Below, piece after piece: positions 6,560 through 53,777 of a DNA stretch of 64,000 bases (positions are counted from its first letter, which is position 1; each line of letters begins with the position of its first letter). This stretch comes from Candidatus Cloacimonadales bacterium (GTDB taxonomy: Bacteria; Cloacimonadota; Cloacimonadia; Cloacimonadales; JAFGVF01): positions 2,237,482-2,301,481 of the forward strand of contig OY782781.1 in assembly GCA_963678315.1 (NCBI GenBank), in the 5' to 3' direction. The translations under genes and the position numbers were made by a program. The notes below the pieces were generated by a model. The model did not search any database. It saw only the letters and a list, made by a program, of their open reading frames with translations, and was not told where the DNA came from.

Positions 6560-7213
6560 CTAAATTAAATTGAAGTTCATATATGGCACATCCTTGAGAT
6601 CTTCTATTTTGGGAACTAGGATAATATCATTGCAATTAGTTAGATGCTGAATTATCTCAATATTTTCTCTTATCATTTGAGAATCAATACCCTTACTATC
6701 AGACATAATGATATTTATTTTACTAATGTTACAAAATTGTAGAGCTTTTATAGACAAAATAGTGTGGTTTTGCGTACCTAAACCAGCGCGAGTAACTAAA
6801 ATCACTTCTGCATCTAATTCTTTAATTAAATCTATCATACAGTAATCTTTTGTTATTGGTACAAAGAGTCCGCCGGCACCTTCACAAATCAAGATTTCTG
6901 AATCATTAGCAGTTCTTTTAATTTTATTCACAAGCTCTTGAATATCTATAGAATAATTATCATCTTTAGCAGCATAATAAGGGGCTTTAGGATTAGTAAA
7001 TATTTTATAGCACTTTTTGGTTATGTTTCCATTAGACTTACCTAGAACTTTCAAAGCATCGCTATCTTCACTATAAACATTTTTGCAGCCGGTTTGTAAC
7101 GGCTTAAAATAATCTACATCTATATTGTTTTCTTCAAAGTAATGATAAAGCAATTTCGCTATAATGCTCTTCCCTACATCAGTATCTGTTCCTGTAATAA
7201 ATAGAATTCTCAT
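6560..7213 (-). CDS. bioD: Dethiobiotin synthetase
   Basis: N-terminal P-loop GTDTDVGKS, 217 aa, last gene of the bio operon, overlapping bioF by 4 nt. Confidence 0.85.
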   Translation of the reverse strand: MRILFITGTDTDVGKSIIAKLLYHYFEENNIDVDYFKPLQTGCKNVYSEDSDALKVLGKSNGNITKKCYKIFTNPKAPYYAAKDDNYSIDIQELVNKIKRTANDSEILICEGAGGLFVPITKDYCMIDLIKELDAEVILVTRAGLGTQNHTILSIKALQFCNISKINIIMSDSKGIDSQMIRENIEIIQHLTNCNDIILVPKIEDLKDVPYMNFNLI

Positions 7214-8322
7214 TTTAAGGCTTCCTTTAATGCTTTAATTAAAACATTTACATCTTCAGTCGTGTGATTTGAAGTTAAACTTATTCTAAGCATCGCTTTA
7301 TTATAATCAACAGTAGGATACTTTGCAGGGAGAACTAATATGTTACTCTTGTACAAACTTTCATACACTTGATTACATGACCTAATTGAATCCATTGGTA
7401 TGGATATAATTTGATGTTTACCTGTGTATTTAATAATGTATTTTTTTAAGGTATGTTTTGCATAGTCGACTATGCTAGCTAGTTTCTCTCTCTTGCAATC
7501 TTGCGAGTGAACATATTCAATTGTAGAATCAAGTGCATAGAAGTATTTTTCTGGGAGTGCAGTCGTATAGATTAATTCTTCAGCAAAATTTATTAAATAA
7601 TCTTTAACCACTTTGGGACATAAGAGGAATCCTCCAAAAAGTCCATAAGCTTTTCCAAAAGTACCAATTTTAATAACTGCTTTATTGGTAAGTCCTAAAC
7701 CATTTTGTCCTAAAACACCGACTGCATGGGCTTCATCTACAATAAATTTATGACTAGCTCTTAATAAATCAACGTCATTTACTGATTTCCCTGACATACT
7801 AAACAATGATTCCGTTACGATGTAGAAGTCTTCAAAAGACTTTGATTTCTTAAGTAAGCTTTGAATATCACAATGTCTATAGCTTCTAATTGTTGCTTCA
7901 CTTTGCTTTAATCCATTAACTATACTATTATGAGATTGCTTATCATAGAACACTTTATCTTTGTTAGAAAATAGATGCTTAAAAGTTGCAATATTTAATT
8001 GGTATCCTGAATTAAATAGTAAAGCTGACTCATAATTATACATTTCAGCTAACTTCTCTTCAATATCATTAATTATTGACAGATTCCCTGAAACAAGCCT
8101 TGATGCAGAACTTCCATAATTTCTATCTTTTGTAAGTTCATCTAAGTGACTCCTAAACTTCTTATCTGAAGTTAGACCTAAATAATCATTAGATGTGAAA
8201 TTTAAGTATCTTGTCTTTCCTATATACGCATATCTGTCAGAAGGTTTAGTAATTGTCTTTAGTTTTCTATATAGATATTGTTCTTGTCTACTTATTAAAG
8301 AATATTCTAAATGCTTAAACAT
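7210..8322 (-). CDS. bioF: 8-amino-7-oxononanoate synthase (class II PLP aminotransferase fold)
   Basis: 370 aa alpha-oxoamine synthase family in bio operon context. The start overlaps the upstream gene. Confidence 0.8.
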   Translation of the reverse strand: MFKHLEYSLISRQEQYLYRKLKTITKPSDRYAYIGKTRYLNFTSNDYLGLTSDKKFRSHLDELTKDRNYGSSASRLVSGNLSIINDIEEKLAEMYNYESALLFNSGYQLNIATFKHLFSNKDKVFYDKQSHNSIVNGLKQSEATIRSYRHCDIQSLLKKSKSFEDFYIVTESLFSMSGKSVNDVDLLRASHKFIVDEAHAVGVLGQNGLGLTNKAVIKIGTFGKAYGLFGGFLLCPKVVKDYLINFAEELIYTTALPEKYFYALDSTIEYVHSQDCKREKLASIVDYAKHTLKKYIIKYTGKHQIISIPMDSIRSCNQVYESLYKSNILVLPAKYPTVDYNKAMLRISLTSNHTTEDVNVLIKALKEALK

Positions 8323-8723
8323 TTGAACCTCTTATGCATAAGTATATTGCTTTTATTATATAGTCCTTCATTAATAAGACCTATATATATCATTGATTTT
8401 GTTGTTTGTTGATTGATAATTGTTGTCACTTCATATAAAATTGCATTTGCGACTATTTCTACTACTCTTGCAAAAGTAATAACTACAATATTACTTTCAA
8501 AATCATAATGAGGATATTGTAGCTCTTTTATTGATAATAGAAAAGCATGTTTATCAAAATTCATTAAATATCTCGCATGTATTCCAGCTGATTGAGCAAG
8601 GAATTCAATAAAATTAAAATCATTCCAATCTTTCATAAGATATTTTGTTTTAATTGATTGAACATCGCAAGATAGAATTTTATTAATCATTAATGAAGTT
8701 TCTAGATTCGTGTTAATTTTCAT
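8307..8723 (-). CDS. Small hotdog-like protein (possible acyl-ACP dehydratase/thioesterase) inside the bio operon
   Basis: 138 aa, translationally coupled (overlaps) with the KAS gene upstream and bioF downstream. The assignment is weak and rests on size and context only. Confidence 0.4.
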   Translation of the reverse strand: MKINTNLETSLMINKILSCDVQSIKTKYLMKDWNDFNFIEFLAQSAGIHARYLMNFDKHAFLLSIKELQYPHYDFESNIVVITFARVVEIVANAILYEVTTIINQQTTKSMIYIGLINEGLYNKSNILMHKRFKCLSI

Positions 8724-9891
8724 TTAAATGATACCTTATGATAACTACAGAATTTTGACCTCCAAAGCCCATACTATTAACAAGTATAGTAAACGATTTC
8801 TTTTCTTTACTTAATTTCATGTTTTTTTTGAGTATATTGAAATCATCAATTGATGACTGACTAAAATTCGATTTTGGTATAAAGCCCTTATCTAAACATG
8901 ATAGTAATAAACATAATTCAGTAAGACCTGAAGCTGCTGATAAATGACCAATAATACTCTTCATAGTCATAACAATAGGTTTATAATCTCCGAATATATT
9001 TTTAAGAACCTTCTTTTCAGCAAGATCATTTGCTTCTGTTCCTGTAGCATGGGCAAGCACTAAATCTATTTGACAAGAACTTAAGTCTGCTTGTCTCAGA
9101 GCGTTAATTATTGCTTGTGTTAATCCTTTACCTTCTGGATTAGGTGAAGTTAAAGAAAAGCAATCCATTGTCGAGGAATGAGCTATTAATTCAATCTTTG
9201 TTTTATTGTACTTCTTAGCAATTTCTTCATTTGCGATAATCATAGATGATCCACCTTCTCCAGGAATAAATCCAAAATCTTCTTGATGGTAAGGTTGATA
9301 TTGACTTCTTGTTAGTTTTAAAGCACCGATTGAATTATATGCGTCTAGTCCATTCCCAGTCAATCGACTATCTCCACAACTACACAATACATAAGCAGAC
9401 ATATTATACTTGATTCTATCGAATGAAGTTCCTAATGCTTGCAGAGATGCCGAACAAGCAGTTCCTAAGCTTATACTCTCACCACAAATACCTGTTCTTT
9501 TTGCTATTACAGAAGCCGCAGTATTCGGTAAATATTGAAGAATCCATGCTTTCTTACTATTATCTGAATTAGCAATTGGAAAATTACCAAAGTTTGGTCC
9601 CGCTCCAACAATAATTGATCCATTTCCCAAGTGTATATATTCTTGATTAAGTCTCTTCCAAACAGAAAGAGCACTAGCTACAGAAAATAGAGCACCTCGA
9701 TTTAGATATCTTTTTTCTGGAAGTCTTTGGACAAAATCTTTATAGTTGAAACTTGTAATAGGAAATGTTCTAATAGAATCCTTTGATGTATAGATTGTTT
9801 GGTCAAAACATTCTAATGATGCTAATATCTCTTTACCATTATTTCCTATATGAGTTATTAATGAATAATCAAGGATAAATACTTTGTTCAT
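8713..9891 (-). CDS. Beta-ketoacyl-ACP synthase (KAS I/II-like) embedded in the bio operon
   Basis: 392 aa with the active-site Cys motif GTACSAS and thiolase fold signatures (MFACQ.., HATGT, GHLSAASG). Confidence 0.8.
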   Translation of the reverse strand: MNKVFILDYSLITHIGNNGKEILASLECFDQTIYTSKDSIRTFPITSFNYKDFVQRLPEKRYLNRGALFSVASALSVWKRLNQEYIHLGNGSIIVGAGPNFGNFPIANSDNSKKAWILQYLPNTAASVIAKRTGICGESISLGTACSASLQALGTSFDRIKYNMSAYVLCSCGDSRLTGNGLDAYNSIGALKLTRSQYQPYHQEDFGFIPGEGGSSMIIANEEIAKKYNKTKIELIAHSSTMDCFSLTSPNPEGKGLTQAIINALRQADLSSCQIDLVLAHATGTEANDLAEKKVLKNIFGDYKPIVMTMKSIIGHLSAASGLTELCLLLSCLDKGFIPKSNFSQSSIDDFNILKKNMKLSKEKKSFTILVNSMGFGGQNSVVIIRYHLNEN

Positions 9892-10286
9892 ATCTGTCTT
9901 TGTTTTGCATAGATGTAATCAACAATATCTGATACTTTTAACACTGGTCCATTACTTATATCTTCAAGGATATCATTAATTCTTTCTTTGGACAAATGAG
10001 AGTATTTCTTTTCTAACTCAAAAAAAAGCTCTTTATTCTCTGATTTATATCTCACAATATCAGTCCTTAGATTTTTTAAGAAGATGATATCGGAGCTAAA
10101 AAAGGATGTGTTACTAGCTAAGGTAAACTCTTTTTTTATATCAATCGCTAACTCCATTAAGTCGATTGATTCAGCTTCTAGCTCTCTTATTATGTAAGTA
10201 TCACTGCTAATTACATTGATATCAATATCTAGTAAATCTGAGATAATTTCTTTGAGTTTTATATAAATTTCTTTTTTATTTAACAT
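9888..10286 (-). CDS. Acyl carrier protein-like protein with C-terminal extension
   Basis: The N-terminal ~80 aa resemble ACP, with an ELEAESIDLMELAIDI motif (phosphopantetheine Ser in DSL/ESI context). Total length is 132 aa, longer than canonical ACP. Confidence 0.6.
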   Translation of the reverse strand: MLNKKEIYIKLKEIISDLLDIDINVISSDTYIIRELEAESIDLMELAIDIKKEFTLASNTSFFSSDIIFLKNLRTDIVRYKSENKELFFELEKKYSHLSKERINDILEDISNGPVLKVSDIVDYIYAKQRQI

Positions 10287-11250
10287 TATTAAATCCTTTA
10301 TCTAAATTAATTATATTCCCATGCATTAACCAAGTTTCTTCCTTAAGAAATAGAGCCATAAATGATGTAATCTCTTCAATTCCTAAGACCTTGTCTTTAG
10401 ATAGACTGACTTGCATATCATTATATCGACCACTCTCTATATATGTTGGTCTAATAATAATTGACTTAACACCCTTTTTTCTGAGTTCATTGCCTAGTGC
10501 TAAGTATATGTTTTCTATAGCAGTTTTACTTGCTAGGTAGAATGATTGTCCTTGATTAAATCTATTTACTGCATTTGATGAGACGTAGATTAGCCTACCA
10601 AAGCGTTTTATTCTCATAATATTACTTACTTCTCTCAAAAGTATAATCTTATTTGTAACATTGATTCTTAGGTATTCTTCAATATCAGCATTTAAAGATG
10701 TAGTAATAAGACTTTCATATCTTGAATGCAAAAAATCAAAAACATAAGCAAATTCTTTATCTTTGAAATAATCAATATTACTCAAAGAATTAAGATCTAC
10801 CTTTATCCATTCTACATTCGTGTTTACTTTTAAAAGAGGCTTATTTTTATTATAGCTAGCAACAACTTTATACTTAGTTAAATCAATTTTATTTATAAGC
10901 TTTTGACCAAGTTCACAAGATCCACCTAGTATTAGTACTCTTGTTTTTAAGTATATGGACTTATAAAAATATATTTTTCCTTTTGCATAAACTTGTGTAT
11001 TGTCATAGAGAGTACAAGTAGCAAGTTCTTCTTTAATCTCTATTTTTGCGCTATATATCTTTGGTTTAGCAAATTTATAAAACTTAAACCTAGAGATATT
11101 TTTTATATGATTAGGCTCAATTTCATTCTTTATAAAATTTATAAATGAAGCTATAATCAATGATCCTGGAACTAAAGGATTACTTGGAAAATGCTCCTGG
11201 TATATTAAATCTTCTTCATTGAAGTGAAATGTACTCTTTAATTGAAACAC
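10276..11250 (-). CDS. Fusion protein: FabZ/FabA-like hotdog dehydratase (N-terminal) + SDR-family ketoreductase (C-terminal)
   Basis: The N-terminus has EHFPSNPLVPGSLI (the FabZ HFPxxPVxPG catalytic His motif). The C-terminus has a Rossmann ILGGSCELGQ and an SDR catalytic YLASK (YxxxK). Confidence 0.7.
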   Translation of the reverse strand: MFQLKSTFHFNEEDLIYQEHFPSNPLVPGSLIIASFINFIKNEIEPNHIKNISRFKFYKFAKPKIYSAKIEIKEELATCTLYDNTQVYAKGKIYFYKSIYLKTRVLILGGSCELGQKLINKIDLTKYKVVASYNKNKPLLKVNTNVEWIKVDLNSLSNIDYFKDKEFAYVFDFLHSRYESLITTSLNADIEEYLRINVTNKIILLREVSNIMRIKRFGRLIYVSSNAVNRFNQGQSFYLASKTAIENIYLALGNELRKKGVKSIIIRPTYIESGRYNDMQVSLSKDKVLGIEEITSFMALFLKEETWLMHGNIINLDKGFNNVK

Positions 11251-12608
11251 TATCCGATAACCTCAAGAATAGAATCATAAGTAATGTTTAGCAATCTTTC
11301 AAAGTCATCTTGACTAATTGATAGAGGAGGCATTATAACAATGATATCTCCCAATGGACGTAAAATTAGCCCCTTTTCACGTGCTTTAAGTATAATTTTA
11401 TGGCCTACCTGGTCTTTTTGAGGAAAATTCTCTTTTGTTGTTTTTTCTTTTACTAGCTCAATAGCTATCATAATTCCTTTATTTCTTATATCTCCAACAT
11501 GTTTTAACAAAGCAAATTTATACTTAAAGTCATCGAATAATTGTATATTTTTTGCCACATTATCTAAAGTCTTTTCCTCTTCGAATAAATCTATGTTAGC
11601 TATTGCTACTGCTGAAGCAAGAGCATTACCTGTAAAAGTATGTCCATGATAAAAAGTTCTGCATTCTTCAGGCTCACCTAGAAAAGCTTCATAAATTTCT
11701 TCAGTTGTAACTGTAGCTGCTAATGGAATATATCCACCAGTAATACCCTTTGCCATACAAATTATATCAGGCTTTACATCTTCTTGCTGGCAAGCGAACA
11801 TTGTACCTGTTTTACCAAATCCTACTGCTACCTCATCACATATCATTAATATTTCATACTTTGTACATAGCCTTCTTACTTCTTTTAAATAACCCTGAGG
11901 ATGAACAATAAGTCCACAAGCTCCTTGAACTAAAGGCTCAATTACAAGAGCTGCAATTTCATTGTGATTGTTTGCCATGATTTCTTCTAATTGCCTAAGA
12001 CAATAATCTTTACATTCTTCTTCAGTCATACCACCATTTAACCTATAGCTATAAGGAGATTCAGCTTTGAATGAATTAAACAGTAGAGATGAATAAACTT
12101 TATGGAATAAATCAATTCCCCCGACACTTACAGATCCAATTGTGTCACCATGGTAGGCAGATTTATATGATATGAATTTTCTCTTGTTTTTAGAACCGTT
12201 TATTGATTGTTGTTGATACTGGTAAGCCATTTTGAGAGCAATTTCAACAGAAGTTGACCCATTATCTGAGTAGAATACTCTAGTTAGATTATCTGGGGTG
12301 ATTTCAATTATCTTATCAGATAATTCAATTGCTACTGAATTTGTCTGGCCTAGAAGAGTTGAATGAGATACTTTATGAACTTGATTAATAATAGCTTCAT
12401 TTAGTTTAGGATGATTATGGCCATGGACATTAGTCCATATAGAAGAAATACCATCTATATATTTTTTACCTTCAATATCATACAAATATATCCCTTCTCC
12501 CCTTTCTATAATCAAGTGTTCTTCATTATTTAATTGTTTCATTTGTGCAAAAGGGTACCACATGTTTTGCTTTGAAGACTTCATTAAATTTTCTTTTCTA
12601 GATTCCAT
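11250..12608 (-). CDS. bioA: Adenosylmethionine-8-amino-7-oxononanoate aminotransferase
   Basis: 452 aa class III aminotransferase (WYPF.., HGHNHP, DEVAVGFGKTG, PLP Lys in MAKGITGG), sitting between bioB and the fab-like genes. Confidence 0.85.
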   Translation of the reverse strand: MESRKENLMKSSKQNMWYPFAQMKQLNNEEHLIIERGEGIYLYDIEGKKYIDGISSIWTNVHGHNHPKLNEAIINQVHKVSHSTLLGQTNSVAIELSDKIIEITPDNLTRVFYSDNGSTSVEIALKMAYQYQQQSINGSKNKRKFISYKSAYHGDTIGSVSVGGIDLFHKVYSSLLFNSFKAESPYSYRLNGGMTEEECKDYCLRQLEEIMANNHNEIAALVIEPLVQGACGLIVHPQGYLKEVRRLCTKYEILMICDEVAVGFGKTGTMFACQQEDVKPDIICMAKGITGGYIPLAATVTTEEIYEAFLGEPEECRTFYHGHTFTGNALASAVAIANIDLFEEEKTLDNVAKNIQLFDDFKYKFALLKHVGDIRNKGIMIAIELVKEKTTKENFPQKDQVGHKIILKAREKGLILRPLGDIIVIMPPLSISQDDFERLLNITYDSILEVIG

Positions 12609-13536
12609 AAGTTACTAATCCTTGATCTCTTATCATTTGCTTATCCTCATCAATTGACCTTCCAGTAGTTGTTAAATAATCTCCAATCATAATTCCATTA
12701 GCTCCTGCCTGGAAAATTTTATCCTGTAGATGTTTTAATGTCTTCTCCCTACCACCAGCTATACAAATGTTAATATCTGGATTGATAACTCTAAATAGAC
12801 TTACTACCCTAAGAGCTTCTTCAGGATCCAATAACGCTTGTTTTTCTAATGGTGTGTTTGCAATAGGATTAAGAAAGTTCAATGGAATAGCATTAATATC
12901 TAACATGCTTATATACTTGGCCATTTCATAACGTTGTTCCCAAGACTCTCCCATACCAATTATTCCACCACAGCAAACTTCTAGTTCTGCTTCTTTTGCA
13001 TTTTTTATTGTTATGACAGAATCTTCAAAGTCATGACTTGAACAGATACTTGGAAAGAATGTTGGAGATGTTTCAATATTATGATGATATCTATCAAAAC
13101 CAATTATCTTTAACTTATCGGCTAATTGTTTGCTTAGTAATCCAAAGGAAGCACATAATCTTAAGTTTGTTTTTTCCTTGATTTTGCAAATTACAGGTTC
13201 AAGCCTTTCTAACTCTTCAAATGTAATATCTCTTCCACTAGTAACAATCGAAAATTGGGTTGCTCCATTATCAAAAGCTTTTGTAGCACTGCTAAATATC
13301 TGATCGTTACTTAGTAAATTGTATTCTGTGATATTAGTGTTATAATGAACTGATTGAGCACAATAGGCACAATTTTCCGGACATCTACCAGATTTTGCAT
13401 TGATTATAGCACATTGGTATATTTTATTACCATGTTTGCTATTTCTTAACAAATGTGTTTTTGCTAATAACTTATCTAAATCTTCATTAATAACATAATT
13501 TATTAATTCATAGTCTATCTCAAATTCATCTAACAT
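12598..13536 (-). CDS. bioB: Biotin synthase (radical SAM)
   Basis: CPENCAYCAQS radical-SAM Cys triad and YNHNIETS. The ORF track starts at GTG 13548. The likely real start is ATG 13536 (MLDEF...), with an AGGTG RBS 9 nt upstream. Confidence 0.9.
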   Translation of the reverse strand: MLDEFEIDYELINYVINEDLDKLLAKTHLLRNSKHGNKIYQCAIINAKSGRCPENCAYCAQSVHYNTNITEYNLLSNDQIFSSATKAFDNGATQFSIVTSGRDITFEELERLEPVICKIKEKTNLRLCASFGLLSKQLADKLKIIGFDRYHHNIETSPTFFPSICSSHDFEDSVITIKNAKEAELEVCCGGIIGMGESWEQRYEMAKYISMLDINAIPLNFLNPIANTPLEKQALLDPEEALRVVSLFRVINPDINICIAGGREKTLKHLQDKIFQAGANGIMIGDYLTTTGRSIDEDKQMIRDQGLVTYGI

Positions 13537-13541
13537 TTTTT

Positions 13542-13570
13542 TGTACACCTTCTATCTTTTAGGGTGTACA
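13542..13570 (-). promoter_or_regulatory. Candidate BirA operator (bioO): TGTACACC-N13-GGTGTACA palindrome over the bioB 5' leader/RBS. A TTGACA -35-like hexamer lies at 13590-13595 on the minus strand.
   Basis: Perfect 8-bp inverted repeat resembling the BirA site half-sites (TTGTAAACC...GGTTTACAA in E. coli), immediately upstream of bioB. Confidence 0.5.
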
Positions 13571-16293: not shown

Positions 16294-16503
16294 TTATTTT
16301 TCGATGGTTATTGCTACATCTGGACATGTTGTGTAGCATAATTTACAAGCTATACATGCTTCTTGGTCAAAACATTCAGCATAATTATAACCTTTTTCAT
16401 TAATATTTTCGGAAAATCTGATTATCTTCTTAGGACATGCAGCGATGCATAATCCACATCCTTTACAATAAGAAGGATTAACTGTCATTCTTGCCATAAC
16501 CAT
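16294..16503 (-). CDS. 2-oxoacid:ferredoxin oxidoreductase, delta subunit (2x[4Fe-4S] ferredoxin)
   Basis: 69 aa with two CxxCxxCxxxCP motifs. Confidence 0.85.
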   Translation of the reverse strand: MVMARMTVNPSYCKGCGLCIAACPKKIIRFSENINEKGYNYAECFDQEACIACKLCYTTCPDVAITIEK

Positions 16504-16515
16504 GACTCCTTTATT

Positions 16516-17733
16516 TTATTTTATATTGAGTTCTTTTTTAATTATTCTTGCTAATCTTATGATACCTTCAAGATTCTTTTCTTTTGAAGCATAAGAGAAG
16601 TTTAATCTTAATGTGTTTCTACCTTCACCATTACAGAAGAAAGATGTACCAGCAACAAAAGCAACATTCTCTTCAGAAATTGCTTTCTTAATTAGCTCGT
16701 TAGTATCAATACTTTCCGGTAGAGTCATCAATGTAAATAAACCACCTTCAGATTTAGTCCAAGTAACACCTTCTGGCATATACTCTTCAAGAGCATTCAT
16801 CATTACTTCTTTTTTAGCTTGGTACATTTCAATAATCTTTTTAATATTTACTTCAAGAAGACCTTTTTGCATGTATCTAGCTGCAATTCTTTGAGTGAAA
16901 GGAGGAGTACAAAGGTCAGTAGCCTGTTTAGCAACAACAATTTTATCAATAATGTCAGCATTAGCAATAACCCAACCGATTCTGAAACCAGGAGCAAATA
17001 TTTTAGAGAATGTCCCTAATAGTACAACCTGTTCAGTACCATCTAATTGGTACATTGTTCTTTGATGTTCACCTTCAAATCTTAACTCTCTATAAGGTGA
17101 ATCTTCAATTATTAGAATGTCGTACTTGCGCGCGATTTCAATAATTTCTAATCTTCTGCATTCTGGCATAGTGATACCTGCAGGATTTTGGAAATCAGGA
17201 ATGATATAGATGAACTTAGGAGCTTCATTATTATCTTTCATTTTAATAATGGCTTCTTCTAATAGATCAGAACGCATTCCTTTATCATCAAGATCAACAC
17301 CTACAATATTAGCACCATAACTGTTAAAAGCGCTTAGTCCACCAAGGTAAGAAGGCAAACCAACAATAACTTTATCACCAGGATTGATGAAAGCTTTAGC
17401 AATTAAATCAAGTGCTTGTTGAGAAGCTGTTGTAATTACTAAATTATCTGTAGTAATATTATGTCCTTCATTAACATATTTTTTAACTAACTCTTCTCTT
17501 AAAATAGGATCACCTTCAGTTGCTCCATATTGTAGAACTGTAGTTCCATCAGTATTAAGAACATCACAAGCTATGTCTCTTAATTCTTCAGTAGGGAAGG
17601 ATTCAGGAGCAGGTAGTCCACCAGCAAATGAAATAATCTCAGGTTTGTTAACCAATTTGAGGAGTTCTCTAATTGCAGAACGTTTCATTCCTTTAACATT
17701 TGTTGAGAGGATTGAATCTAAATTTTTAATCAT
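16516..17733 (-). CDS. PLP-dependent aminotransferase, class I/II (aspartate/aromatic aminotransferase-like)
   Basis: 405 aa fold-type I aminotransferase (SFSKIFAPGFRIGW Lys motif), first gene upstream of the oxidoreductase operon. Confidence 0.75.
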   Translation of the reverse strand: MIKNLDSILSTNVKGMKRSAIRELLKLVNKPEIISFAGGLPAPESFPTEELRDIACDVLNTDGTTVLQYGATEGDPILREELVKKYVNEGHNITTDNLVITTASQQALDLIAKAFINPGDKVIVGLPSYLGGLSAFNSYGANIVGVDLDDKGMRSDLLEEAIIKMKDNNEAPKFIYIIPDFQNPAGITMPECRRLEIIEIARKYDILIIEDSPYRELRFEGEHQRTMYQLDGTEQVVLLGTFSKIFAPGFRIGWVIANADIIDKIVVAKQATDLCTPPFTQRIAARYMQKGLLEVNIKKIIEMYQAKKEVMMNALEEYMPEGVTWTKSEGGLFTLMTLPESIDTNELIKKAISEENVAFVAGTSFFCNGEGRNTLRLNFSYASKEKNLEGIIRLARIIKKELNIK

Positions 17734-19496: not shown

Positions 19497-21140
19497 CTAC
19501 TTGATGTGTAACAATTTTGAAGTCTTACATTTTCCTTCAGAAGAAACTTTAACCAAGTAGACACCACTTGGAAGTTCTTTATCATTTTCATTACAACCAT
19601 TCCAAACTATCTCTAAATGGCCTGATCTATTATTCTGATTCATAAAACTTTTCACTTTTTGTCCCTTAATATTGTATATTTCTACATTGACCCGAACATT
19701 TGATTTCGTATCGATTTTTATATTTGACTTGCTTCTAAATGGATTAGGATAATTATTTACCGTTAAATTATTTACAGGAGTTGAATCTTCTGAATTAGAA
19801 ACAATTTCACTTATTCCTTCTAAATTTATATTCCAGTTTGAGTTGTTAGGGTCACTTGAGGAAATAGTTAAAGATCCATTATAGCTTGATTCTTCAGTAG
19901 GGGTAAAATCAACATTGATTATTCCTATATCACCTTGTCCAATACTATTAGGAAAACTTATATTATTAAAGACCTCTACATTAGAATGAACATTATTTAT
20001 TTGCAATATGTCAGTTCCATTATTAACAACAGGTATTGATAATGTTACTGCATTATTAAGATCATAAGCATAGGCAACAAAATTATCAACAGGTATAAAC
20101 ATATCGGGATAACGTGATGTACTTGTGTTTGACGTAATACTTGCAAGTCTATCTAATAGTTCTGGGTGCTCTATGAAAGGATTTGGTTTATTTTGGACTT
20201 CTTCTATTTCTTGAGCTCTGTATAATTCATAGTCACTAACAGGGTCTTGATAATACCAATTTCTTAAAACTTCTTGCTGACCAGCACTATTTAAAAAGTT
20301 GTTAGGATTATTATATCTAATACTAAAGTAGAACATAGCTCTTGCCACATCTCCTTTGTGATCATCTCTTGGTTCAAATACGGTTGTACCGGATGAATTA
20401 GAGCCTCTCTTAGAACCACCATCAGACCAATTAGAAGAAGATACTTCACCAAATGGAAGGTTACCTCTTACACTATTAGCTTGTGAATCAGTTGGAAATA
20501 AATGGAACAAATCCGACTTTGCAGTACCTGTTGCCCCCATACTTTGAGGCCAAGTGTGTTCAGTATTGATTTGATTCCAATTAGGAATAGATCCAGGAGA
20601 ACAATTGTACCATTCATCAGTATAAACACATCTAACCTGACCATTGTCATTGTCTATATATCCAAAAATCTCTATTCTTGCATCTTCATAGCTGATTGAA
20701 GTATGATTTCTAATGATAGCCGAAATTGCATTCTTGAGTTCAAAATCATATTTGTTGTAGGTTGTGTTATAAATACTTTCAGAGAATGTTCCTTGTGCTG
20801 ATACTTCAATTGTTTGTATTTCACTTCTAGCTTCATCAACGATAAATATAGCTGTATCATAGTTGATATTTGTTTCTGGTGAGAAGGTAACAGTAACTTC
20901 TATTTCTTCATTCGCAAATAAACTAACATTATCATTACTTAATAAAATCTGTTCACTATCTTCAATTATATCTATGTTTAATTCATTATTAGTTAAATTG
21001 GTTATTGTAAAAACACCTTGAACCTCTCCCCCATCAATCACTGAGCCAAATTCTAATTCTGTTGTTGAGACTTGAAAAGAATTTGCCTTAATTGTCATTA
21101 TAACAAATAATACTATAAATATTACTAACGTTTTTTTCAT
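19497..21140 (-). CDS. Secreted endonuclease I family nuclease with T9SS-type C-terminal sorting domain
   Basis: N-terminal signal peptide. Endonuclease I motifs NTEHTWPQSMG and DLFHLFPTDSQANSVRGNLPFG. The C-terminus NYPNPF...GVYLVKV... matches the Por/T9SS CTD pattern. Confidence 0.75.
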   Translation of the reverse strand: MKKTLVIFIVLFVIMTIKANSFQVSTTELEFGSVIDGGEVQGVFTITNLTNNELNIDIIEDSEQILLSNDNVSLFANEEIEVTVTFSPETNINYDTAIFIVDEARSEIQTIEVSAQGTFSESIYNTTYNKYDFELKNAISAIIRNHTSISYEDARIEIFGYIDNDNGQVRCVYTDEWYNCSPGSIPNWNQINTEHTWPQSMGATGTAKSDLFHLFPTDSQANSVRGNLPFGEVSSSNWSDGGSKRGSNSSGTTVFEPRDDHKGDVARAMFYFSIRYNNPNNFLNSAGQQEVLRNWYYQDPVSDYELYRAQEIEEVQNKPNPFIEHPELLDRLASITSNTSTSRYPDMFIPVDNFVAYAYDLNNAVTLSIPVVNNGTDILQINNVHSNVEVFNNISFPNSIGQGDIGIINVDFTPTEESSYNGSLTISSSDPNNSNWNINLEGISEIVSNSEDSTPVNNLTVNNYPNPFRSKSNIKIDTKSNVRVNVEIYNIKGQKVKSFMNQNNRSGHLEIVWNGCNENDKELPSGVYLVKVSSEGKCKTSKLLHIK

Positions 21141-21625: not shown

Positions 21626-22582
21626 CTATTTTATAATTGTAATTTTCTTAACTTGACTCCTTTCCCCATACTTAACATTTAGAAAGTATATGCCAGACGG
21701 ATAATCTAAATTCTGAATCTGAAAATATCCTTTCTTTGATTTAAGATTGTTTTCAGAATAAACTAATCTACCTCTAAGGTCATAGAGAGACAGACTTATA
21801 TTCTTATTACTTTTTTCCATAAATTCAATATTGAAACTGTTTATACAAGGTTGCGGATATATCTGTTTGATTAGCTGATTCTGCATAGGTTCAACCTCTT
21901 GAGAATTTGACACTGTTTTATGGTAGGTTACGATTAAGTGCGGATCATATGAATTTGATGAGGTTGGGTTATTTGAATATGAAACATAATCTGCTTCATA
22001 TAGTCCTATATCATGACCTGGAGGGAATCTCAGTCTAAACTGTGAGTATCCACGTGAATGTTCTATATCATTAAGATAGCTCTCAGTAATTGGAAAGGAG
22101 ACCCAGCCAACATGACCACTATCTTGCAGAACACCTACATTGGAAGTAAGTGGTTCAAGATCAAAAACAGAAGGAGCTAAAGTCTCATACTCTATGTGGT
22201 CTATATTTACTGAGTAGGGTGTAGTGTAGTAGTGTGGCCAAACAAGATCTATCCCATTATCCCAATAGCGCCAACAGTAAAGTTGAAGTATTACATTTGC
22301 CACGACGTAATCATTGGGAACAGGAATAGTCTCGAATGAAATAAATGATCTTAATTCAAAAATACCGGTTCCAACAAACTGAGCATAACCGTAGCCAATG
22401 TCTAAAGTTGTTAGATTGGGAAAATTGTAATAATCATGATAATCCATATTATAGTATATAGTCCCAGTCATAGGATTAGGTTCAGAGTATATTGTGTCAA
22501 CAAGAACTGAGTCATCTCTATCAGCATATAATTGTAGAATTAAGCTATATAGAATTAAAAAGATTAATAGATATCTCTTCAT
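21626..22582 (-). CDS. Secreted hypothetical protein with T9SS C-terminal domain (tandem paralog 1)
   Basis: Signal peptide and C-terminal YPQPCINSFNIEF...GIYFLNVKYG...KKITIIK CTD. About 82% aa identity to the adjacent ORF. Confidence 0.7.
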   Translation of the reverse strand: MKRYLLIFLILYSLILQLYADRDDSVLVDTIYSEPNPMTGTIYYNMDYHDYYNFPNLTTLDIGYGYAQFVGTGIFELRSFISFETIPVPNDYVVANVILQLYCWRYWDNGIDLVWPHYYTTPYSVNIDHIEYETLAPSVFDLEPLTSNVGVLQDSGHVGWVSFPITESYLNDIEHSRGYSQFRLRFPPGHDIGLYEADYVSYSNNPTSSNSYDPHLIVTYHKTVSNSQEVEPMQNQLIKQIYPQPCINSFNIEFMEKSNKNISLSLYDLRGRLVYSENNLKSKKGYFQIQNLDYPSGIYFLNVKYGERSQVKKITIIK

Positions 22583-22605
22583 TTCTTCCTCCTATTTATT
22601 TGCTA

Positions 22606-23562
22606 TTATTTTATAATTGTGATTTTCTTAACTTGACTTCTTTTCCCATCCTTAACCTTGATAAAATATATTCCTGATGGATAATCTAAGTTTTGCATTC
22701 GGAAAAGCCCCTTATTTGATTTTAGATTATTTTCAGAATAAACTAATCTACCTCTAAGGTCATAAAGAGACAGACTTATGTTCTTATTACTTTTTTCCAT
22801 AAATTCAATATTGAAACTGTTTATACAAGGTTGCGGATAGATCTGTTTGATTATTTGCTCCTGCATAGGTGTAACCTCTTCAGAATTTGACACTGATTTA
22901 TGGTAGGTTACGATTAGGTGTGGATCATGCGAACTAGATGAAGTTGGGTTATTTGAATAATTTACAACATCTGCTTCATATAGAGATATATCATGACCTG
23001 GTGGAAATCTCAGCCTAAACTGAGAATAATCATGCGATTGTTCAATATCGTTAAGATAGCTCTCAGTAATCGGGAAGGAAATCCAACCAACATAAGCACT
23101 ATCCTGCAAGACCCCCACACTGGAAGTAAGTGACTCAACATCGAAAACTGAAGGTTCTAAGGCTCCAAACTGTATGTGATCAATATTTACTGAATAAGGT
23201 GTAGAATAATAGTGTGGCCATATAAAGTCGGTGCCATTATCCCAATAGTACTGACATTTAAGACGTAACATTACACTTGATATGACGTAATCATTGGGAA
23301 CAGGAATAGTCTCGAATGAAATAAATGATCTTAATTCAAAAATACCGGTTCCAACAAACTGAGCGTAACCATAACCAATTTCTAAGGATGTTTGATTGGG
23401 AAAGTTATAATAATCATGATAATCCATACTATAGTATATAGTCCCAGTCATAGGATTAGGCTCAGCGTATATTGTATCAACAAGAACTGATTCATATCTA
23501 TCAGCATATAACTGTAGAATTATGCTAAGTAGAATTAATAAGATTAAGAGATGTCTCTTCAT
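22606..23562 (-). CDS. Secreted hypothetical protein with T9SS C-terminal domain (tandem paralog 2)
   Basis: 318 aa, same length as and collinear with paralog 1. The upstream RBS/leader sequence is duplicated too. Confidence 0.7.
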   Translation of the reverse strand: MKRHLLILLILLSIILQLYADRYESVLVDTIYAEPNPMTGTIYYSMDYHDYYNFPNQTSLEIGYGYAQFVGTGIFELRSFISFETIPVPNDYVISSVMLRLKCQYYWDNGTDFIWPHYYSTPYSVNIDHIQFGALEPSVFDVESLTSSVGVLQDSAYVGWISFPITESYLNDIEQSHDYSQFRLRFPPGHDISLYEADVVNYSNNPTSSSSHDPHLIVTYHKSVSNSEEVTPMQEQIIKQIYPQPCINSFNIEFMEKSNKNISLSLYDLRGRLVYSENNLKSNKGLFRMQNLDYPSGIYFIKVKDGKRSQVKKITIIK

Positions 23563-50327: not shown

Positions 50328-52253
50328 TTATCCTCTTAAATCTATTTCCTTTCCGGTAAAAACTCTAGTATCTTCCATTCTTTTAGTAATAGCAATTTTG
50401 TCAAAGATTTCTAAATAATATAAAGTGATTTTTCTATTAACTCCAAGAGCATCTCTAACTTCACTTACTTTAAAATTCTTAGGACATTTGTCTTTAATAG
50501 CTTCAATTATACTTAAAATTATACTTGCTGAAATGAAGACATTATTTTGAGGTATAATTAGCTTTTGTTCAATCAGGTGATTGATTATTGAATTATAATC
50601 TTGCCCTTTTAACGAATACTTTTTTATAGACAGATCTTTCAAGTCCTCTTCGGGATAGTCTACACCAATCTGATTTATATCTTCAAGAATGCTTTTTTCT
50701 GTGTTAATCAAGTAATTTGCATCTTCTGGATTATGAGAACTTAGCAAATATGTACTATCAAATGCCTTTACAGAATTTTCTTCAGTCATGCCTTTTAGAA
50801 TGCTTATTAAAACTGACTTTGTAATAGTAGTGTGTTTACTCGAGATATATTTAAATATATCATTTATTGATAATCCCTTATTACTTAGTTTATTTTGTAA
50901 ATGATGTCTTCGAAGGACTTTATTTACTTCCTCTTCAATAATTTCTTTCCTCTCTCGTAAGACTAATAAACTTTCATTATCTTCTTTGATAATTGTAATC
51001 ATATCCGGAATTTCTTTTATAGCAGAATCCAACACTTCTAAAGTAATATTTAGATATCTACAGATAGTTGTAGCTTTCAATAAATCAAGCGACTTTTCCA
51101 GTTCATTGAGAATAACCCATTTTACTTCGTTATTAGCTAGTTGATGTAACTTATCAATTAGTTTTTTAGGTCTTTTCTTATGTTTTAAAGGGTAAGCATC
51201 AATAATTCTACCACCGCCAATAGTCTTTGTATTAGAACTGTCTCTTATAATGTACTTGTCGTTATAGTAAAATACTCCAGCTTTATCTAACGTAATTTGG
51301 ACTATAGCCGTTTCATTTTCAGTTAGTTCATTTTTATCAATCAAGTGCATTTTGGCTTTCGATTTGTAAGTACCAGATAATAGGATTACTGTTGACCATA
51401 ACTTCAATGTTTCTTTAGAGTAATTTACTAAATGACAATCAATCCTATCGCTGTTATCTCTATCATGAGATGTAATCAACATACCTCGTCTAAATTCAGA
51501 AACTTTCAAACCTGTTACGTTAAGAGAAGCTCTGTCTCCTGGAAATATACTATCTACAGAATGTTTAAATCTTTCGATTCCTCTTATTCTTAAATTTTTT
51601 CTATCAGGGAGTAATAAGACTTCATCAGTTTTAACCAATTTCCCACTTAATACTGAGCCATTAACAACAGTTCCATGACCTGTAACTGAAAAGATTCTAT
51701 CTATATACATTCTAAAAACTAGACCTAAGTCTTTTTCATTAACCATAGAAATTTGATTAGCAATCTCTTTTCTTATATCATTCAGTCCATTCCCTGTTTT
51801 ACTGGATACTTTTATAATATTACAATTTTCAAGAAAGCTACTTGAAACAAACTCTTTAACCTCTTCAATTGCTAATTCTGTCAATTCCTCGTCTACTAAG
51901 TCAGTTTTTGTTAATGCAACGAAGCCAGATTTAATGTCTAATAGCTCCATGATTTTAAGATGTTCTTGTGTTTGTGGCATAATTCCACTATCTGCTGAGA
52001 TAACTAACATAACAAAATCAATGCTTGAAGCACCAGCTATCATAGTATTTATGAAGTCCTTATGACCTGGTACATCAATTATTCCCACTTCCTTATCTTC
52101 ATCAATCTTAATATGACTAAAACCTAGATGAATTGTTATACCCCTATTCTTTTCTTCTTTATGAGTGTCACAATCAAAGCCGGTTAGAAGTTTTATTAAA
52201 GACGTTTTTCCATGGTCAACATGGCCTGCAGTTCCCATTGTTAAGTGTTTCAT
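50328..52253 (-). CDS. selB: Selenocysteine-specific translation elongation factor SelB
   Basis: EF-Tu-like GTPase GTAGHVDHGKTSL with long C-terminal winged-helix extensions. 641 aa. Immediately downstream of selA and tRNA-Sec. Confidence 0.85.
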   Translation of the reverse strand: MKHLTMGTAGHVDHGKTSLIKLLTGFDCDTHKEEKNRGITIHLGFSHIKIDEDKEVGIIDVPGHKDFINTMIAGASSIDFVMLVISADSGIMPQTQEHLKIMELLDIKSGFVALTKTDLVDEELTELAIEEVKEFVSSSFLENCNIIKVSSKTGNGLNDIRKEIANQISMVNEKDLGLVFRMYIDRIFSVTGHGTVVNGSVLSGKLVKTDEVLLLPDRKNLRIRGIERFKHSVDSIFPGDRASLNVTGLKVSEFRRGMLITSHDRDNSDRIDCHLVNYSKETLKLWSTVILLSGTYKSKAKMHLIDKNELTENETAIVQITLDKAGVFYYNDKYIIRDSSNTKTIGGGRIIDAYPLKHKKRPKKLIDKLHQLANNEVKWVILNELEKSLDLLKATTICRYLNITLEVLDSAIKEIPDMITIIKEDNESLLVLRERKEIIEEEVNKVLRRHHLQNKLSNKGLSINDIFKYISSKHTTITKSVLISILKGMTEENSVKAFDSTYLLSSHNPEDANYLINTEKSILEDINQIGVDYPEEDLKDLSIKKYSLKGQDYNSIINHLIEQKLIIPQNNVFISASIILSIIEAIKDKCPKNFKVSEVRDALGVNRKITLYYLEIFDKIAITKRMEDTRVFTGKEIDLRG

Positions 52254-53612
52254 TTATTTTGAATACTCTCTATTGATTTGACTTGTTATGTATTCAATAT
52301 CATCATCATTAATTGCAATCACATCTAACACTAACTTACTTCCTTTCAGAAAACCGAGAATAGGTTTTTCTAAAGCTAGCAGATTATAGAAAGCTCTTTT
52401 ACTTACTTCTTCAGTTGCATCAATTTCAATTGCATATGATTCTAATTTAATTTTTGGTAAAGAACCACCACCAACTTTAGCTGAGTGCTCAATAATAGAA
52501 GTCTTAACAAATATACGCTTACCCAAAGAATATGCTCTATTATAAAGTATTTCTTTAGACTGTCTTATTTGTCTAAAAAATGGTAGGTCTATCTCACTAA
52601 TAGGCTTGTTATGCTCTTTTATAGTTTCGTATAAAATAGTTTCTGTCACTTTACCAACTCTCAACACACGATACAAAGGGTTTTTCTTTAATCTATCAAT
52701 GTACTCTCTTTTTCCTACAATAATGCCAGCTTGTGGTCCGCCTAATAACTTGTCCCCACTAAAACTTACTAAATCTACTCCATATTTAAGAATTTCGGAT
52801 ACGCTCTCTTCCCATTCAAAAGTAGAAGAAGAGTCTTTAGTTAAAATTGCTGATCCAACATCATAATATGAAATCAGATTATTTTCTTGTGCTAAACTTG
52901 CGATTTTATCAATTAATACTTCTTCAGTAAAACCTTCTAAGAAGAAGTTTGATCTATGAACTTTCATCAGCATAGTTGTATTTTCATTAATGTTATTGAT
53001 GTAATCATTCAGTTTAGTTTTATTTGTAGTACCAATTTCTTTAAGTTTTGCCCCACTCATATTCATTATGTCTGGAACCCTAAATGAACCACCAATTTCT
53101 ACTAATTCCCCGCGTGATACAATGACCTCAGATTTTTTAGCTAATTCATTTAATATAAGAAATACAGCACTTGCATTGTTATTAACAATGAGACTTGCCT
53201 CAGCCCCAGTTGTCTTACAAATAATGTTTTTAAGATAAGCACCTCTCTCTCCTCTCTTCCCTTTCTCTAAATCAAATTCTATATTTAAATAATTAGCTAG
53301 TTTTTCAGATGTTGATTCCAAAATCTTTTTACTAATTTTAGCCCTTCCTAAATTAGTATGAATTAAAACCCCGGTGCAATTAACAACATTCTTTAATTCT
53401 GTGGGTAAATATTGTTTAAGTTGATTATCTAAGAGAATTAATATCTCTTCACTTGTATAGCCTGAGCCTGATAATATATCTTTCTTAATTGATGAAATGA
53501 AAGCCTTAGTTAGTTCCTTTGTTCTTTGTTCACCTAAAACTTTAAAATATTCTTGTAATCTATTGTCTTCATATATCTTATTCATTGATGGAACATTAAT
53601 CATTTCATTCAT
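52254..53612 (-). CDS. selA: L-seryl-tRNA(Sec) selenium transferase SelA
   Basis: PLP-Lys motif SFSGDKLLGGPQAGIIVGK, as in E. coli SelA. 452 aa. Confidence 0.9.
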   Translation of the reverse strand: MNEMINVPSMNKIYEDNRLQEYFKVLGEQRTKELTKAFISSIKKDILSGSGYTSEEILILLDNQLKQYLPTELKNVVNCTGVLIHTNLGRAKISKKILESTSEKLANYLNIEFDLEKGKRGERGAYLKNIICKTTGAEASLIVNNNASAVFLILNELAKKSEVIVSRGELVEIGGSFRVPDIMNMSGAKLKEIGTTNKTKLNDYINNINENTTMLMKVHRSNFFLEGFTEEVLIDKIASLAQENNLISYYDVGSAILTKDSSSTFEWEESVSEILKYGVDLVSFSGDKLLGGPQAGIIVGKREYIDRLKKNPLYRVLRVGKVTETILYETIKEHNKPISEIDLPFFRQIRQSKEILYNRAYSLGKRIFVKTSIIEHSAKVGGGSLPKIKLESYAIEIDATEEVSKRAFYNLLALEKPILGFLKGSKLVLDVIAINDDDIEYITSQINREYSK

Positions 53613-53630
53613 AAAAACCTCTTATTAGAG

Positions 53631-53660
53631 AAGACGAGTCGGAAATTATTCCGACTCGTT
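53631..53660 (-). other. Stable hairpin between selC and selA (GACGAGTCGG-aaattatt-CCGACTCGTT)
   Basis: A 10-bp perfect stem directly 3' of the tRNA on the transcribed strand, followed by the selA RBS (AAGAGG). It is not followed by a U-run, so it is a processing or partial-termination signal rather than a canonical terminator. Confidence 0.5.
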
Positions 53661-53669
53661 AATTTATTT

Positions 53670-53765
53670 GGCTGAGAGGGCAGGAATCGAACCTGCCAAA
53701 AACGGTTTTATCCGCTTCCTATCGGTTTTGAAGACCGACTGAACCACCAGATTCATCCTCCCGGC
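53670..53765 (-). tRNA. selC: tRNA-Sec (selC), anticodon UCA
   Basis: Folded by eye on the minus strand. It has a GGTTCGATTCC T-loop with a 5-bp T-stem. The 6-bp anticodon stem (GTCGGT/ACCGAT) carries loop CTTCAAA, giving anticodon TCA. The D-stem is 6 bp (TGAATC/GGTTCA) with 4-nt loop TGGT. The variable arm is long (~23 nt) and the acceptor is extended (8-9 bp) with one C.A mismatch. Exact ends are uncertain to within ~3 nt. Confidence 0.8.
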
Positions 53766-53777
53766 AATTTCTATTTA

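Follow-up and report, generated by a model that had tools for sequence, protein, structure and literature searches.

The biotin operon of Desulfovibrio contains genes for an acyl carrier protein (ACP), a beta-ketoacyl-ACP synthase (KAS), a ketoreductase (KR), and two FabZ-like proteins, which were proposed by Rodionov and colleagues in 2004 to constitute a new pimeloyl pathway (PMC545781). In Desulfovibrio vulgaris, random bar code transposon-site sequencing (RB-TnSeq) by Trotter et al. in 2023 demonstrated that growth without biotin requires every gene of this cluster and, in addition, one that is nitroreductase-like; the biochemistry of the pathway is undefined (PMC10102598). A count of December 2025 lists four pimeloyl routes, and the Desulfovibrio-type route is not among them (PMC12704756). 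Here we report the analysis of a four-protein module resembling type II fatty acid synthesis (FAS) that is encoded within a biotin operon of a Candidatus Cloacimonadales bacterium, on a 64-kb stretch of contig OY782781.1 (hereafter, the window), and that probably represents a Desulfovibrio-type route to pimeloyl-ACP.

The source of pimelate in bacteria without BioC/BioH, BioI/BioW, BioZ, and BioE is a long-standing gap in biotin biosynthesis. The Desulfovibrio-type cluster was put forward to fill it in 2004 and gained genetic evidence in 2023, with no enzyme characterized to date. This 'extended biotin operon' corresponds in D. vulgaris to DVU2558-DVU2565 together with DORF42491; alongside the 2004 and 2023 studies of Rodionov and Trotter, that of Lin and Cronan from 2011 is reportedly also to be named for it. 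The BioC-BioH, BioI-BioW, BioZ, and BioE routes share with the module studied here the presumed end point, pimeloyl-ACP or pimeloyl-CoA for BioF. Unlike those routes, the module would rely on a private set of ketosynthase (KS), KR, dehydratase (DH), and ACP, with no hijacking of FAS by a methyl ester, no long-chain cleavage, and no KAS III. The pathway itself is already known at the genetic level; the new elements are a KR-DH fusion unique among the sequences searched, a reading of the dehydratase as a split-site enzyme, a class of expanded ACPs, and a low-GC host with proteins of the type IX secretion system (T9SS) type.

The extended biotin operon and its relatives

The operon lies on the minus strand at 6560-13548 and consists of eight close-packed open reading frames (ORFs), whose neighboring starts and stops overlap throughout. 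Their order is bioB-bioA-[hotdog~SDR]-[ACP]-[FabF-type KAS]-[138-aa hotdog]-bioF-bioD, where SDR denotes a short-chain dehydrogenase/reductase, and the FAS-like genes are set between bioB/bioA and bioF/bioD as in the extended biotin operon. The four genes between bioA and bioF encode a 324-aa fusion protein, a 132-aa ACP, a 392-aa KAS, and a 138-aa protein (Table 1). The products of bioA, bioB, and bioD pass the cutoffs of their equivalog families. BioF reaches 288 bits against the TIGR00858 cutoff of 426, although this family is still its best match; the divergence of BioF may reflect an adaptation to an unusual acyl donor, the dedicated ACP.

In gene content, the locus matches the Desulfovibrio operon: both have two FabZ-like hotdog proteins, a FabG-like SDR, a dedicated ACP, a FabF-like KAS, and bioB/bioA and bioF/bioD flanks, and both are without bioC and bioH, which for our locus refers to the scanned ORFs of the window. 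It differs in that a single polypeptide contains both the first hotdog and the SDR and in that no nitroreductase-like gene was found in or near the cluster or elsewhere among the scanned ORFs. These ORFs, from which four large ones at ~33.1-43.9 kb were left out, also contained no bioC-, bioH-, bioW-, bioI-, bioZ-, or bioE-like gene. Each component is homologous to its FabZ, FabG, FabF, or AcpP counterpart in type II FAS, with the catalytic residues kept. Unlike in that system, the His and Glu of FabZ are split over two truncated chains, and the SDR, KAS, ACP, and hotdog all fall below the NCBIfam equivalog cutoffs. An earlier note on this DNA had proposed a substrate-specific module rather than bulk lipid synthesis, and this proposal agrees with the biotin-operon context, the recurrence of the cluster in Desulfobacterota, and the D. 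vulgaris genetics.

A genome scan for relatives with an alignment of eight small-hotdog sequences, together with contig look-ups, showed that the cluster recurs in Desulfobacteraceae, Desulfosarcinaceae, Desulfomicrobium, Desulfoluna, a metagenome-assembled genome of the Syntrophales, and two further contigs. Conserved synteny was identified by tblastn with every window protein in the loci from Desulfomicrobium (L007), Desulfoluna (L009), Desulfosarcinaceae (L006), and Syntrophales (L052) and in the loci L008 and L053. Closest to the window is L002, a metagenome scaffold of 33% GC with a T9SS-type protein nearby, on which bioB and bioA are followed by genes for a 98-aa hotdog, a 231-aa SDR, a 128-aa ACP, a 393-aa KAS, and a 143-aa ORF. 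In L006 (1752-2426) and L052 (8569-9201), a nitroreductase-family gene lies between the ACP and KAS genes, which fits the enoyl-reductase candidate of Trotter et al. The L052 cluster is in addition broken between the SDR and ACP genes by a toxin-antitoxin pair and an AAA gene.

A perfect palindrome, TGTACACC-N13-GGTGTACA, occupies positions 13542-13570 and overlaps the ribosome-binding site and start of bioB; it matches once in the window and in 0 of 100 shuffles. The BirA operator consensus is TTGTAAACC-N14/15-GGTTTACAA (PMC545781), and related sequences lie ahead of bioB at 1976-2005 in L052, where birA is the divergent neighbor, and at 8817-8846 in L009. By its sequence, the palindrome is thus a candidate BirA-type biotin operator, which fits biotin-responsive control of the operon. 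The GTG at 13548 falls inside the palindrome, and the true start of bioB is likely the ATG at 13536, which is preceded by AAGGTG and fits the 312-aa gene call in a second strain, L001. A sigma-70 promoter scan was uninformative, with 44 sites against 44 expected. The upstream boundary of the operon is given by a terminator-like stem-loop that ends the upstream 2-oxoacid:ferredoxin oxidoreductase genes.

The module could in principle make a product unrelated to biotin, such as a specialized lipid or an aryl-polyene-like polyketide, and merely be housed in the bio operon. Its KS, KR, two half-hotdogs, and dedicated ACP do resemble the aryl-polyene machinery, and a hotdog-SDR pair occurs away from bio genes in L003 and L004; yet the bioA-module-bioF arrangement with overlapping starts and stops is kept across distant lineages, D. 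vulgaris mutants in each equivalent gene are biotin auxotrophs, and a BirA-like operator stands in front of the operon. Furthermore, the module has a single active KS, with neither a chain-length-factor partner nor an aryl-loading enzyme. Therefore, we regard a product other than a biotin precursor as very improbable.

The orphan pair consists of a small hotdog and an SDR with an 11-nt overlap (6062-7829 in L003; 2791-4558 in L004) and adjoins a chemoreceptor and a 255-aa protein without a Pfam match. No biotin genes, ACP, or KAS were found around it on these two contigs, and the small-hotdog and SDR pair may also serve another pathway.

Table 1. Positions in the window of the biotin operon, its FAS-like module, and the preceding stem-loop
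Feature	Position	Strand	Evidence or remark
bioD, dethiobiotin synthase	6560-7213	-	TIGR00347 5.7e-43, above cutoff
bioF, 8-amino-7-oxononanoate synthase, divergent	7210-8322	-	TIGR00858 7.8e-86
138-aa FabZ-type hotdog (putative)	8307-8723	-	Glu40 codon 8604-8606; profile comparisons
FabF-type beta-ketoacyl-ACP synthase, 392 aa	8713-9891	-	Cys146 codon 9454-9456
Specialized ACP, 132 aa	9888-10286	-	PP-binding 1e-4; Ser40 codon 10167-10169
Internal insertion of the ACP, residues ~67-110	9957-10088	-	Three extra helices (predicted)
SDR half of the fusion, residues 102-324	10276-10947	-	FabG-like, presumed 3-oxoacyl-ACP reductase
Fusion junction	10948-10984	-	Linker residues 97-101; A4, A5, and T5 runs at 10965-10984
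Hotdog half of the fusion, residues 1-96	10963-11250	-	FabZ/FabA-type, catalytic His20
bioA, adenosylmethionine-8-amino-7-oxononanoate transaminase	11250-12608	-	TIGR00508 1.3e-165, above cutoff
bioB, biotin synthase	12598-13548	-	TIGR00433 1e-112, above cutoff
Intrinsic-terminator-like stem-loop	13857-13886	-	13-bp stem, then T-run

The hotdog-SDR fusion and its junction

The fusion gene is one unbroken ORF at 10276-11250, which begins with GTG and overlaps the stop of bioA by 1 nt. A phmmer search against 1.84 billion representative proteins gave 622 matches, and both halves are covered by the query alone. The other matches listed are either SDRs of ~230-250 aa, aligned to residues ~100-324, or hotdogs of ~93-105 aa, aligned to residues ~2-95; covering the halves separately, they show that the two domains meet at about residues 96-101. 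The in-frame joining of a FabZ-like hotdog to an SDR that the earlier note had described is thus borne out as a single 324-aa ORF, both halves of which are independently significant in profile searches, and its call for domain boundaries by homology search is answered by a hotdog at residues 1-96 and an SDR at ~102-324. Two of the phmmer matches have other architectures: in P0082, the same small His-hotdog is joined to a FabD-like malonyl transacylase, and P0100 combines a MaoC-type hotdog, an SDR, and an ACP within one 479-aa chain.

The two halves were aligned separately with their own relatives. Residues 2-95 match ~50 stand-alone hotdogs of 93-105 aa at 35-46% identity (E-values from 1e-8 to 5e-15), and the profile of this small-hotdog family finds FabZ structures at ~1e-6 and ApeI (6qsr_A) at E=0.003. 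The catalytic His noted earlier in EHFPSNPLVPG, His20 (codon 11191-11193), is invariant across the family within the motif HFPxNPxVPG. The length given in that description does not hold, as the hotdog measures ~96 rather than ~110 aa. It also has no catalytic Glu: the position of the FabZ Glu, 14 residues past the His, is Ala34, and this column is variable across the family. Taken alone, the fused hotdog scores 20.1 bits against the Pfam FabA cutoff of 23, which four of its relatives pass. As judged from its sequence, the fused hotdog is an incomplete dehydratase, a single half-enzyme lacking the catalytic Glu.

The SDR half matches adh_short at 4e-14, and the profile of its subfamily aligns with E. 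coli FabG (1i01) over the full length of 237 positions at 4e-34. The GGSCELG and YLASK motifs are present as previously read; the former spans residues 109-115 and provides the Rossmann glycine motif, and the latter holds the invariant Tyr238 (10537-10539) and Lys242, which complete with Ser224/225 the Ser-Tyr-x3-Lys set of a FabG-type reductase. The protein is nevertheless not a FabG equivalog, with 46 bits against the TIGR01830 cutoff of 298. Its subfamily carries D-x-x-H-S in place of NNAG and 'lRPgYIxxGR' in place of the FabG substrate loop 'VAPGFIETDM'; Gly274-Arg275 of this loop is invariant, and Arg267 is found in at least 90% of members.

Joining dehydratase and ketoreductase functions covalently is a property that the fusion shares with the DH-KR parts of type I polyketide synthases (PKS) and FAS. 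However, the DH of a PKS is a complete double hotdog of ~280 aa, usually with further domains between it and the KR, and the fusion has a 96-aa half-hotdog without the catalytic acid and a ~5-residue linker that arose by loss of an overlapping stop and start. A PKS-type DH-KR didomain was therefore rejected. As a general line of reasoning, the step in the earlier note from 'mini-PKS-like' fusions to a specialized module lacks support for the same reason and also because the fusion is confined to this species, with nine of nine relatives unfused, and the extra ACP residues form an internal insertion; the specialized character of the module follows from its biotin-operon context and not from the fusion, and the module normally runs unfused.

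At the junction, the reading frame continues without a stop codon and without an ATG, GTG, or TTG. In all nine relatives, including the orphan pair of L003 and L004, the hotdog and the SDR are in different reading frames, and in the cleanly callable loci (L002, L003, L005, L006, L052, and L053) the gene ends overlap by 4-11 nt. The distance from the conserved 'GK' to 'ILGG' is 42 nt in the window and 43 nt in L002, and as a consequence the two halves share a frame in the window. The fusion would then have arisen in this lineage by a net change of one base where the stop and start overlap, and the KR would be covalently attached to the DH half that carries the His. The junction-spanning peptide of the protein is KGKIYFYKSIYLK.

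The same change could result from a one-base homopolymer miscall, since one base added to any of the A4, A5, and T5 runs restores a 96-aa hotdog ('...KGKIYFL*') and an SDR with its own ATG. Under this explanation, a base was dropped in assembly, and the locus really encodes the 96-aa hotdog and a ~240-aa SDR in overlapping frames. It would account for the unfused state of all relatives examined and for the lack of any other fused homologue among the 1.84 billion representatives. The junction is, however, identical in L001, a second strain whose 3.02-Mb contig was assembled separately from the 2.99-Mb contig of the window, with 271 substitutions between them over 21 kb; the fusion gene itself differs by three synonymous and no non-synonymous changes. 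The sole indel in these 21 kb is intergenic, and homopolymer miscalls appear to be rare here, given the 304 A/T runs inside long intact ORFs of the window (214 of 5 nt and 90 of at least 6 nt), the ~85% coding density, and the full-length profile matches. In addition, the restored SDR would begin eight residues upstream of that of any relative, and the usual position has no start codon.

Three points count against a genuine fusion or its interpretation: a single homopolymer base is all that separates the gene from the unfused state; the window and L001 are very close strains (~0.5% background divergence), so that a context-specific systematic error could recur in both, and may come from one sample; and AlphaFold models the fusion poorly, with a predicted local distance difference test (pLDDT) score of 57 from a three-sequence alignment, from which the domain packing is not readable. 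On the whole, we consider an assembly artefact distinctly unlikely and prefer a genuine lineage-specific fusion. Programmed frameshifting was rejected because the fusion ORF is plainly in frame. Metagenome scans with the fusion and with the closest ACP subfamily returned nothing relevant and no intermediate by which to date the fusion.

Partner proteins and genomic setting

FabZ carries its catalytic Glu 14 residues past the catalytic His, in 'PGVLIIEAMAQ', and its active sites form across the dimer interface. The residue missing from the fused hotdog has a counterpart in the 138-aa protein, whose homologues occupy the same position in the relatives examined, after the KAS gene and overlapping bioF. 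Its family has the invariant residues E40, A43, Q44, H49, and R51 within the pattern 'lEalAQ..g.H.R', and the family profile matches FabZ structures alone, in each case from the 'LIIEAMAQ' helix on (E=0.022). In an hhalign comparison with a profile of 22 genuine FabZ-type ORFs from the fetched loci, the family aligned over 101 columns (Prob 94.2%, E=1.2e-7), with Glu40 on the FabZ catalytic Glu and a 14-column gap exactly at the FabZ His loop 'GHFPGNPvVPG'. Thus, each chain has one invariant catalytic residue, the His in the small-hotdog family and the Glu in the 138-aa family, and is without the partner residue. With FabZ sites forming across the dimer interface, this division implies a predicted heterodimeric dehydratase with one composite site, to which the fusion would contribute His20 and the 138-aa protein Glu40. 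Such a split site would also explain why these clusters, including that of D. vulgaris, contain two 'FabZ-like' genes. This interpretation is weakened by the outcome of individual Pfam scans of the 138-aa family, which gave essentially nothing, and by an hhalign comparison of that family with the small-hotdog family, which was not significant; the assignment of the 138-aa protein as a putative hotdog comes from profile methods only.

A precedent exists in aryl-polyene synthesis, where the ApeI/ApeP dehydratase is a heterodimer with a single active site and ApeI is sometimes fused to a neighboring enzyme (PMC8041823). As in ApeI/ApeP (PDB 6QSR), two unlike small hotdog chains would here form a single composite site, and the chain with the His tends to become fused to a neighboring enzyme of the pathway, as in ApeH-ApeI of A. 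baumannii. In our case, the fusion partner is a ketoreductase instead of an acyl-ACP synthetase, a saturated C7 diacid rather than a polyene is the presumed product, and the resemblance is one of architecture, as the sequence similarity is marginal. The fused hotdog scores 14.4 bits against the cutoff of 28.5 for the ApeI-like family PF22818, which the precomputed annotation does list for it, and only one of seven members of the 138-aa family matched the ApeP-like PF22817, at E=0.12; neither protein is therefore placed in these families.

The dedicated ACP has the features of a carrier protein, namely a Ser that begins helix II in the motif ESID and a core that superimposes on canonical ACPs, and it departs from the canonical size of ~75-80 aa, scoring 24 bits against the TIGR00517 cutoff of 70. 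Pfam PP-binding covers only residues 10-56. When compared with E. coli AcpP, the first ~60 and last ~20 residues align ('VSDIVDYIY' versus 'VQAAIDYIN'), and the ~44 residues at ~67-110 are unmatched, between helix II and the last helix (118-130), which corresponds to AcpP helix IV. The AlphaFold model, built from a 62-sequence alignment (pLDDT 87.8; predicted template-modeling score 0.84), has helix I at 4-19, helix II from Ser40, extra helices at 68-82, 87-94, and 100-112, and the last helix at 118-130. The earlier note had the length of 132 aa and the Ser in ESID, which is invariant, right; it placed the additional residues in a C-terminal tail, and both the AcpP alignment and the model locate them internally.

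A Foldseek search of the PDB returned canonical ACPs only, with template-modeling scores of 0.72-0.81 normalized to the target and at most 0.51 normalized to the query, half of which was covered; the insertion is thus without a solved counterpart. Among 1,147 clusters retrieved in an ACP-type profile search, the best 120 are of 119-136 aa, and the named ones among these 120 are from Desulfoluna, Desulfomicrobium, and Syntrophales. The family invariants are E39-S40-I41-D42, F69, R74, R102, G113-P114, D120, and Y124, with two conserved motifs in the insertion, FLKNLR (F69, R74) and KY.HLS..R..EIL (R102). From the alignments and the model, this ACP is a distinct class with a family-wide internal three-helix insertion, which would most likely provide a docking surface specific to this ACP, so that omega-carboxy intermediates do not enter bulk FAS.

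The KAS family profile matches FabF structures at 1e-77 over positions 3-391, and the catalytic set of a FabF-type enzyme is intact, with Cys146, His281, Lys311, and His316 invariant. The family-invariant motifs RYLNRG, GxGPN, and GDSR substitute for segments that are close to the acyl pocket in FabF structures, and any role assigned to these motifs is presumptive. A KS/chain-length-factor pair was rejected, as there is only one KAS and it has the active Cys.

Divergence between the window and L001 is mosaic, with a background of 0.3-0.7% and patches of 3-5% at 8300-10250, 16300-17700, and 19700-20700. The first patch spans the ACP, the KAS, and the 138-aa ORF and has an unusually large share of amino acid changes: 8 aa from 13 nt in the ACP and 10 aa from 12 nt in the 138-aa ORF, compared with 0 aa in the adjoining fusion gene. 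This mosaic suggests recombination, or relaxed or diversifying selection, on part of the module.

The host has ~30% GC and T9SS-type secreted proteins, traits that suggest a lineage outside the previously reported Desulfobacterota and Chrysiogenetes. Two tandem 318-aa paralogues at 21626-23562 each carry a C-terminal T9SS sorting domain (Por_Secre_tail), and a third T9SS-tailed protein, at 19497-21140, is endonuclease-like. At 50328-55616, a selenocysteine set of selB (50328-52253), selA (52254-53612), and tRNA-Sec (53670-53765) adjoins a gene for a 612-aa NuoF/HydB-like flavoprotein with Fe-S domains.

A proposed route to pimeloyl-ACP

The substrate and product of the module, its primer, the identity of the enoyl reductase, the dehydratase heterodimer, and the functions ascribed to the insertion and to the conserved arginines are given here as we infer them. 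The dedicated ACP would be phosphopantetheinylated at Ser40 and then loaded with malonate; the FabF-type KAS would extend an omega-carboxy-acyl primer with malonyl-ACP, the SDR half would reduce the 3-oxo group, and the hotdog pair would carry out dehydration with His20 of the fused hotdog and Glu40 of the 138-aa protein. Each round would be completed by an enoyl reductase encoded elsewhere, either a nitroreductase-like flavoprotein as in the relatives or a housekeeping enzyme. Two rounds from malonyl would give pimeloyl-ACP, to be consumed by the adjoining divergent BioF, and the BioC/BioH methyl-ester disguise would not be involved.

How a free omega-carboxy group could be accommodated is suggested by the arginines that recur among the family-invariant residues: R61, R65, and R176 in the KAS, R275 in the SDR (R267 being nearly invariant), R51 in the 138-aa hotdog, and R34, R74, and R102 in the ACP. 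They would fit the suggestion of Trotter et al. that the active sites are less hydrophobic than those of the FAS homologues (PMC10102598). Going further, the KR, the two-chain DH, and the expanded ACP might form one physical 'pimelate synthase' complex, with the fusion as its 'Rosetta stone', in which the arginines bind the free omega-carboxy intermediates and so replace the BioC/BioH disguise; we put this forward tentatively, as an idea with fairly modest chances.

Several points tell against assigning the module to pimeloyl-ACP. The product is read from the operon context and the D. vulgaris genetics, and the link to D. vulgaris runs through the Desulfomicrobium cluster and not through the D. 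vulgaris proteins themselves. No enoyl-reductase candidate was found in the cluster or among the scanned ORFs of the window, and the negative result on other pimelate routes refers to these scanned ORFs, within a genome of ~3 Mb.

A different chemistry within biotin synthesis has also to be weighed, in which the KAS would follow a BioZ-like logic and join a C5 diacid thioester (glutaryl-CoA or glutaryl-ACP) to malonyl-ACP, with one reductive round leading to pimeloyl-ACP. A single round would avoid priming the KS with an undisguised malonyl group, and many hosts of the cluster are anaerobes handling glutaryl- or glutaconyl-CoA. There is also a characterized precedent, as BioZ condenses glutaryl-CoA with malonyl-ACP (PMC8024396, PMC12704756). 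The KAS of the module is, however, a FabF-type Cys-His-His enzyme, which normally uses ACP-bound primers, whereas BioZ is of the KAS III type; none of the loci examined has genes for glutaryl-CoA formation or lysine catabolism linked to the cluster, and the fusion of the small hotdog to a FabD-like malonyl transacylase in P0082 points to malonyl loading. We consider priming with a C5 unit an unlikely but serious alternative to the two-round elongation from malonyl.

For the study of this pathway, the natural KR-DH fusion hints at which proteins to co-express and co-purify, and, if real, it offers a single-chain handle for structural work on the complex. If the proposed complex is true, 'pimelate synthase' would be a mechanistically fifth route to the biotin precursor, one that reaches beyond the Desulfobacterota.

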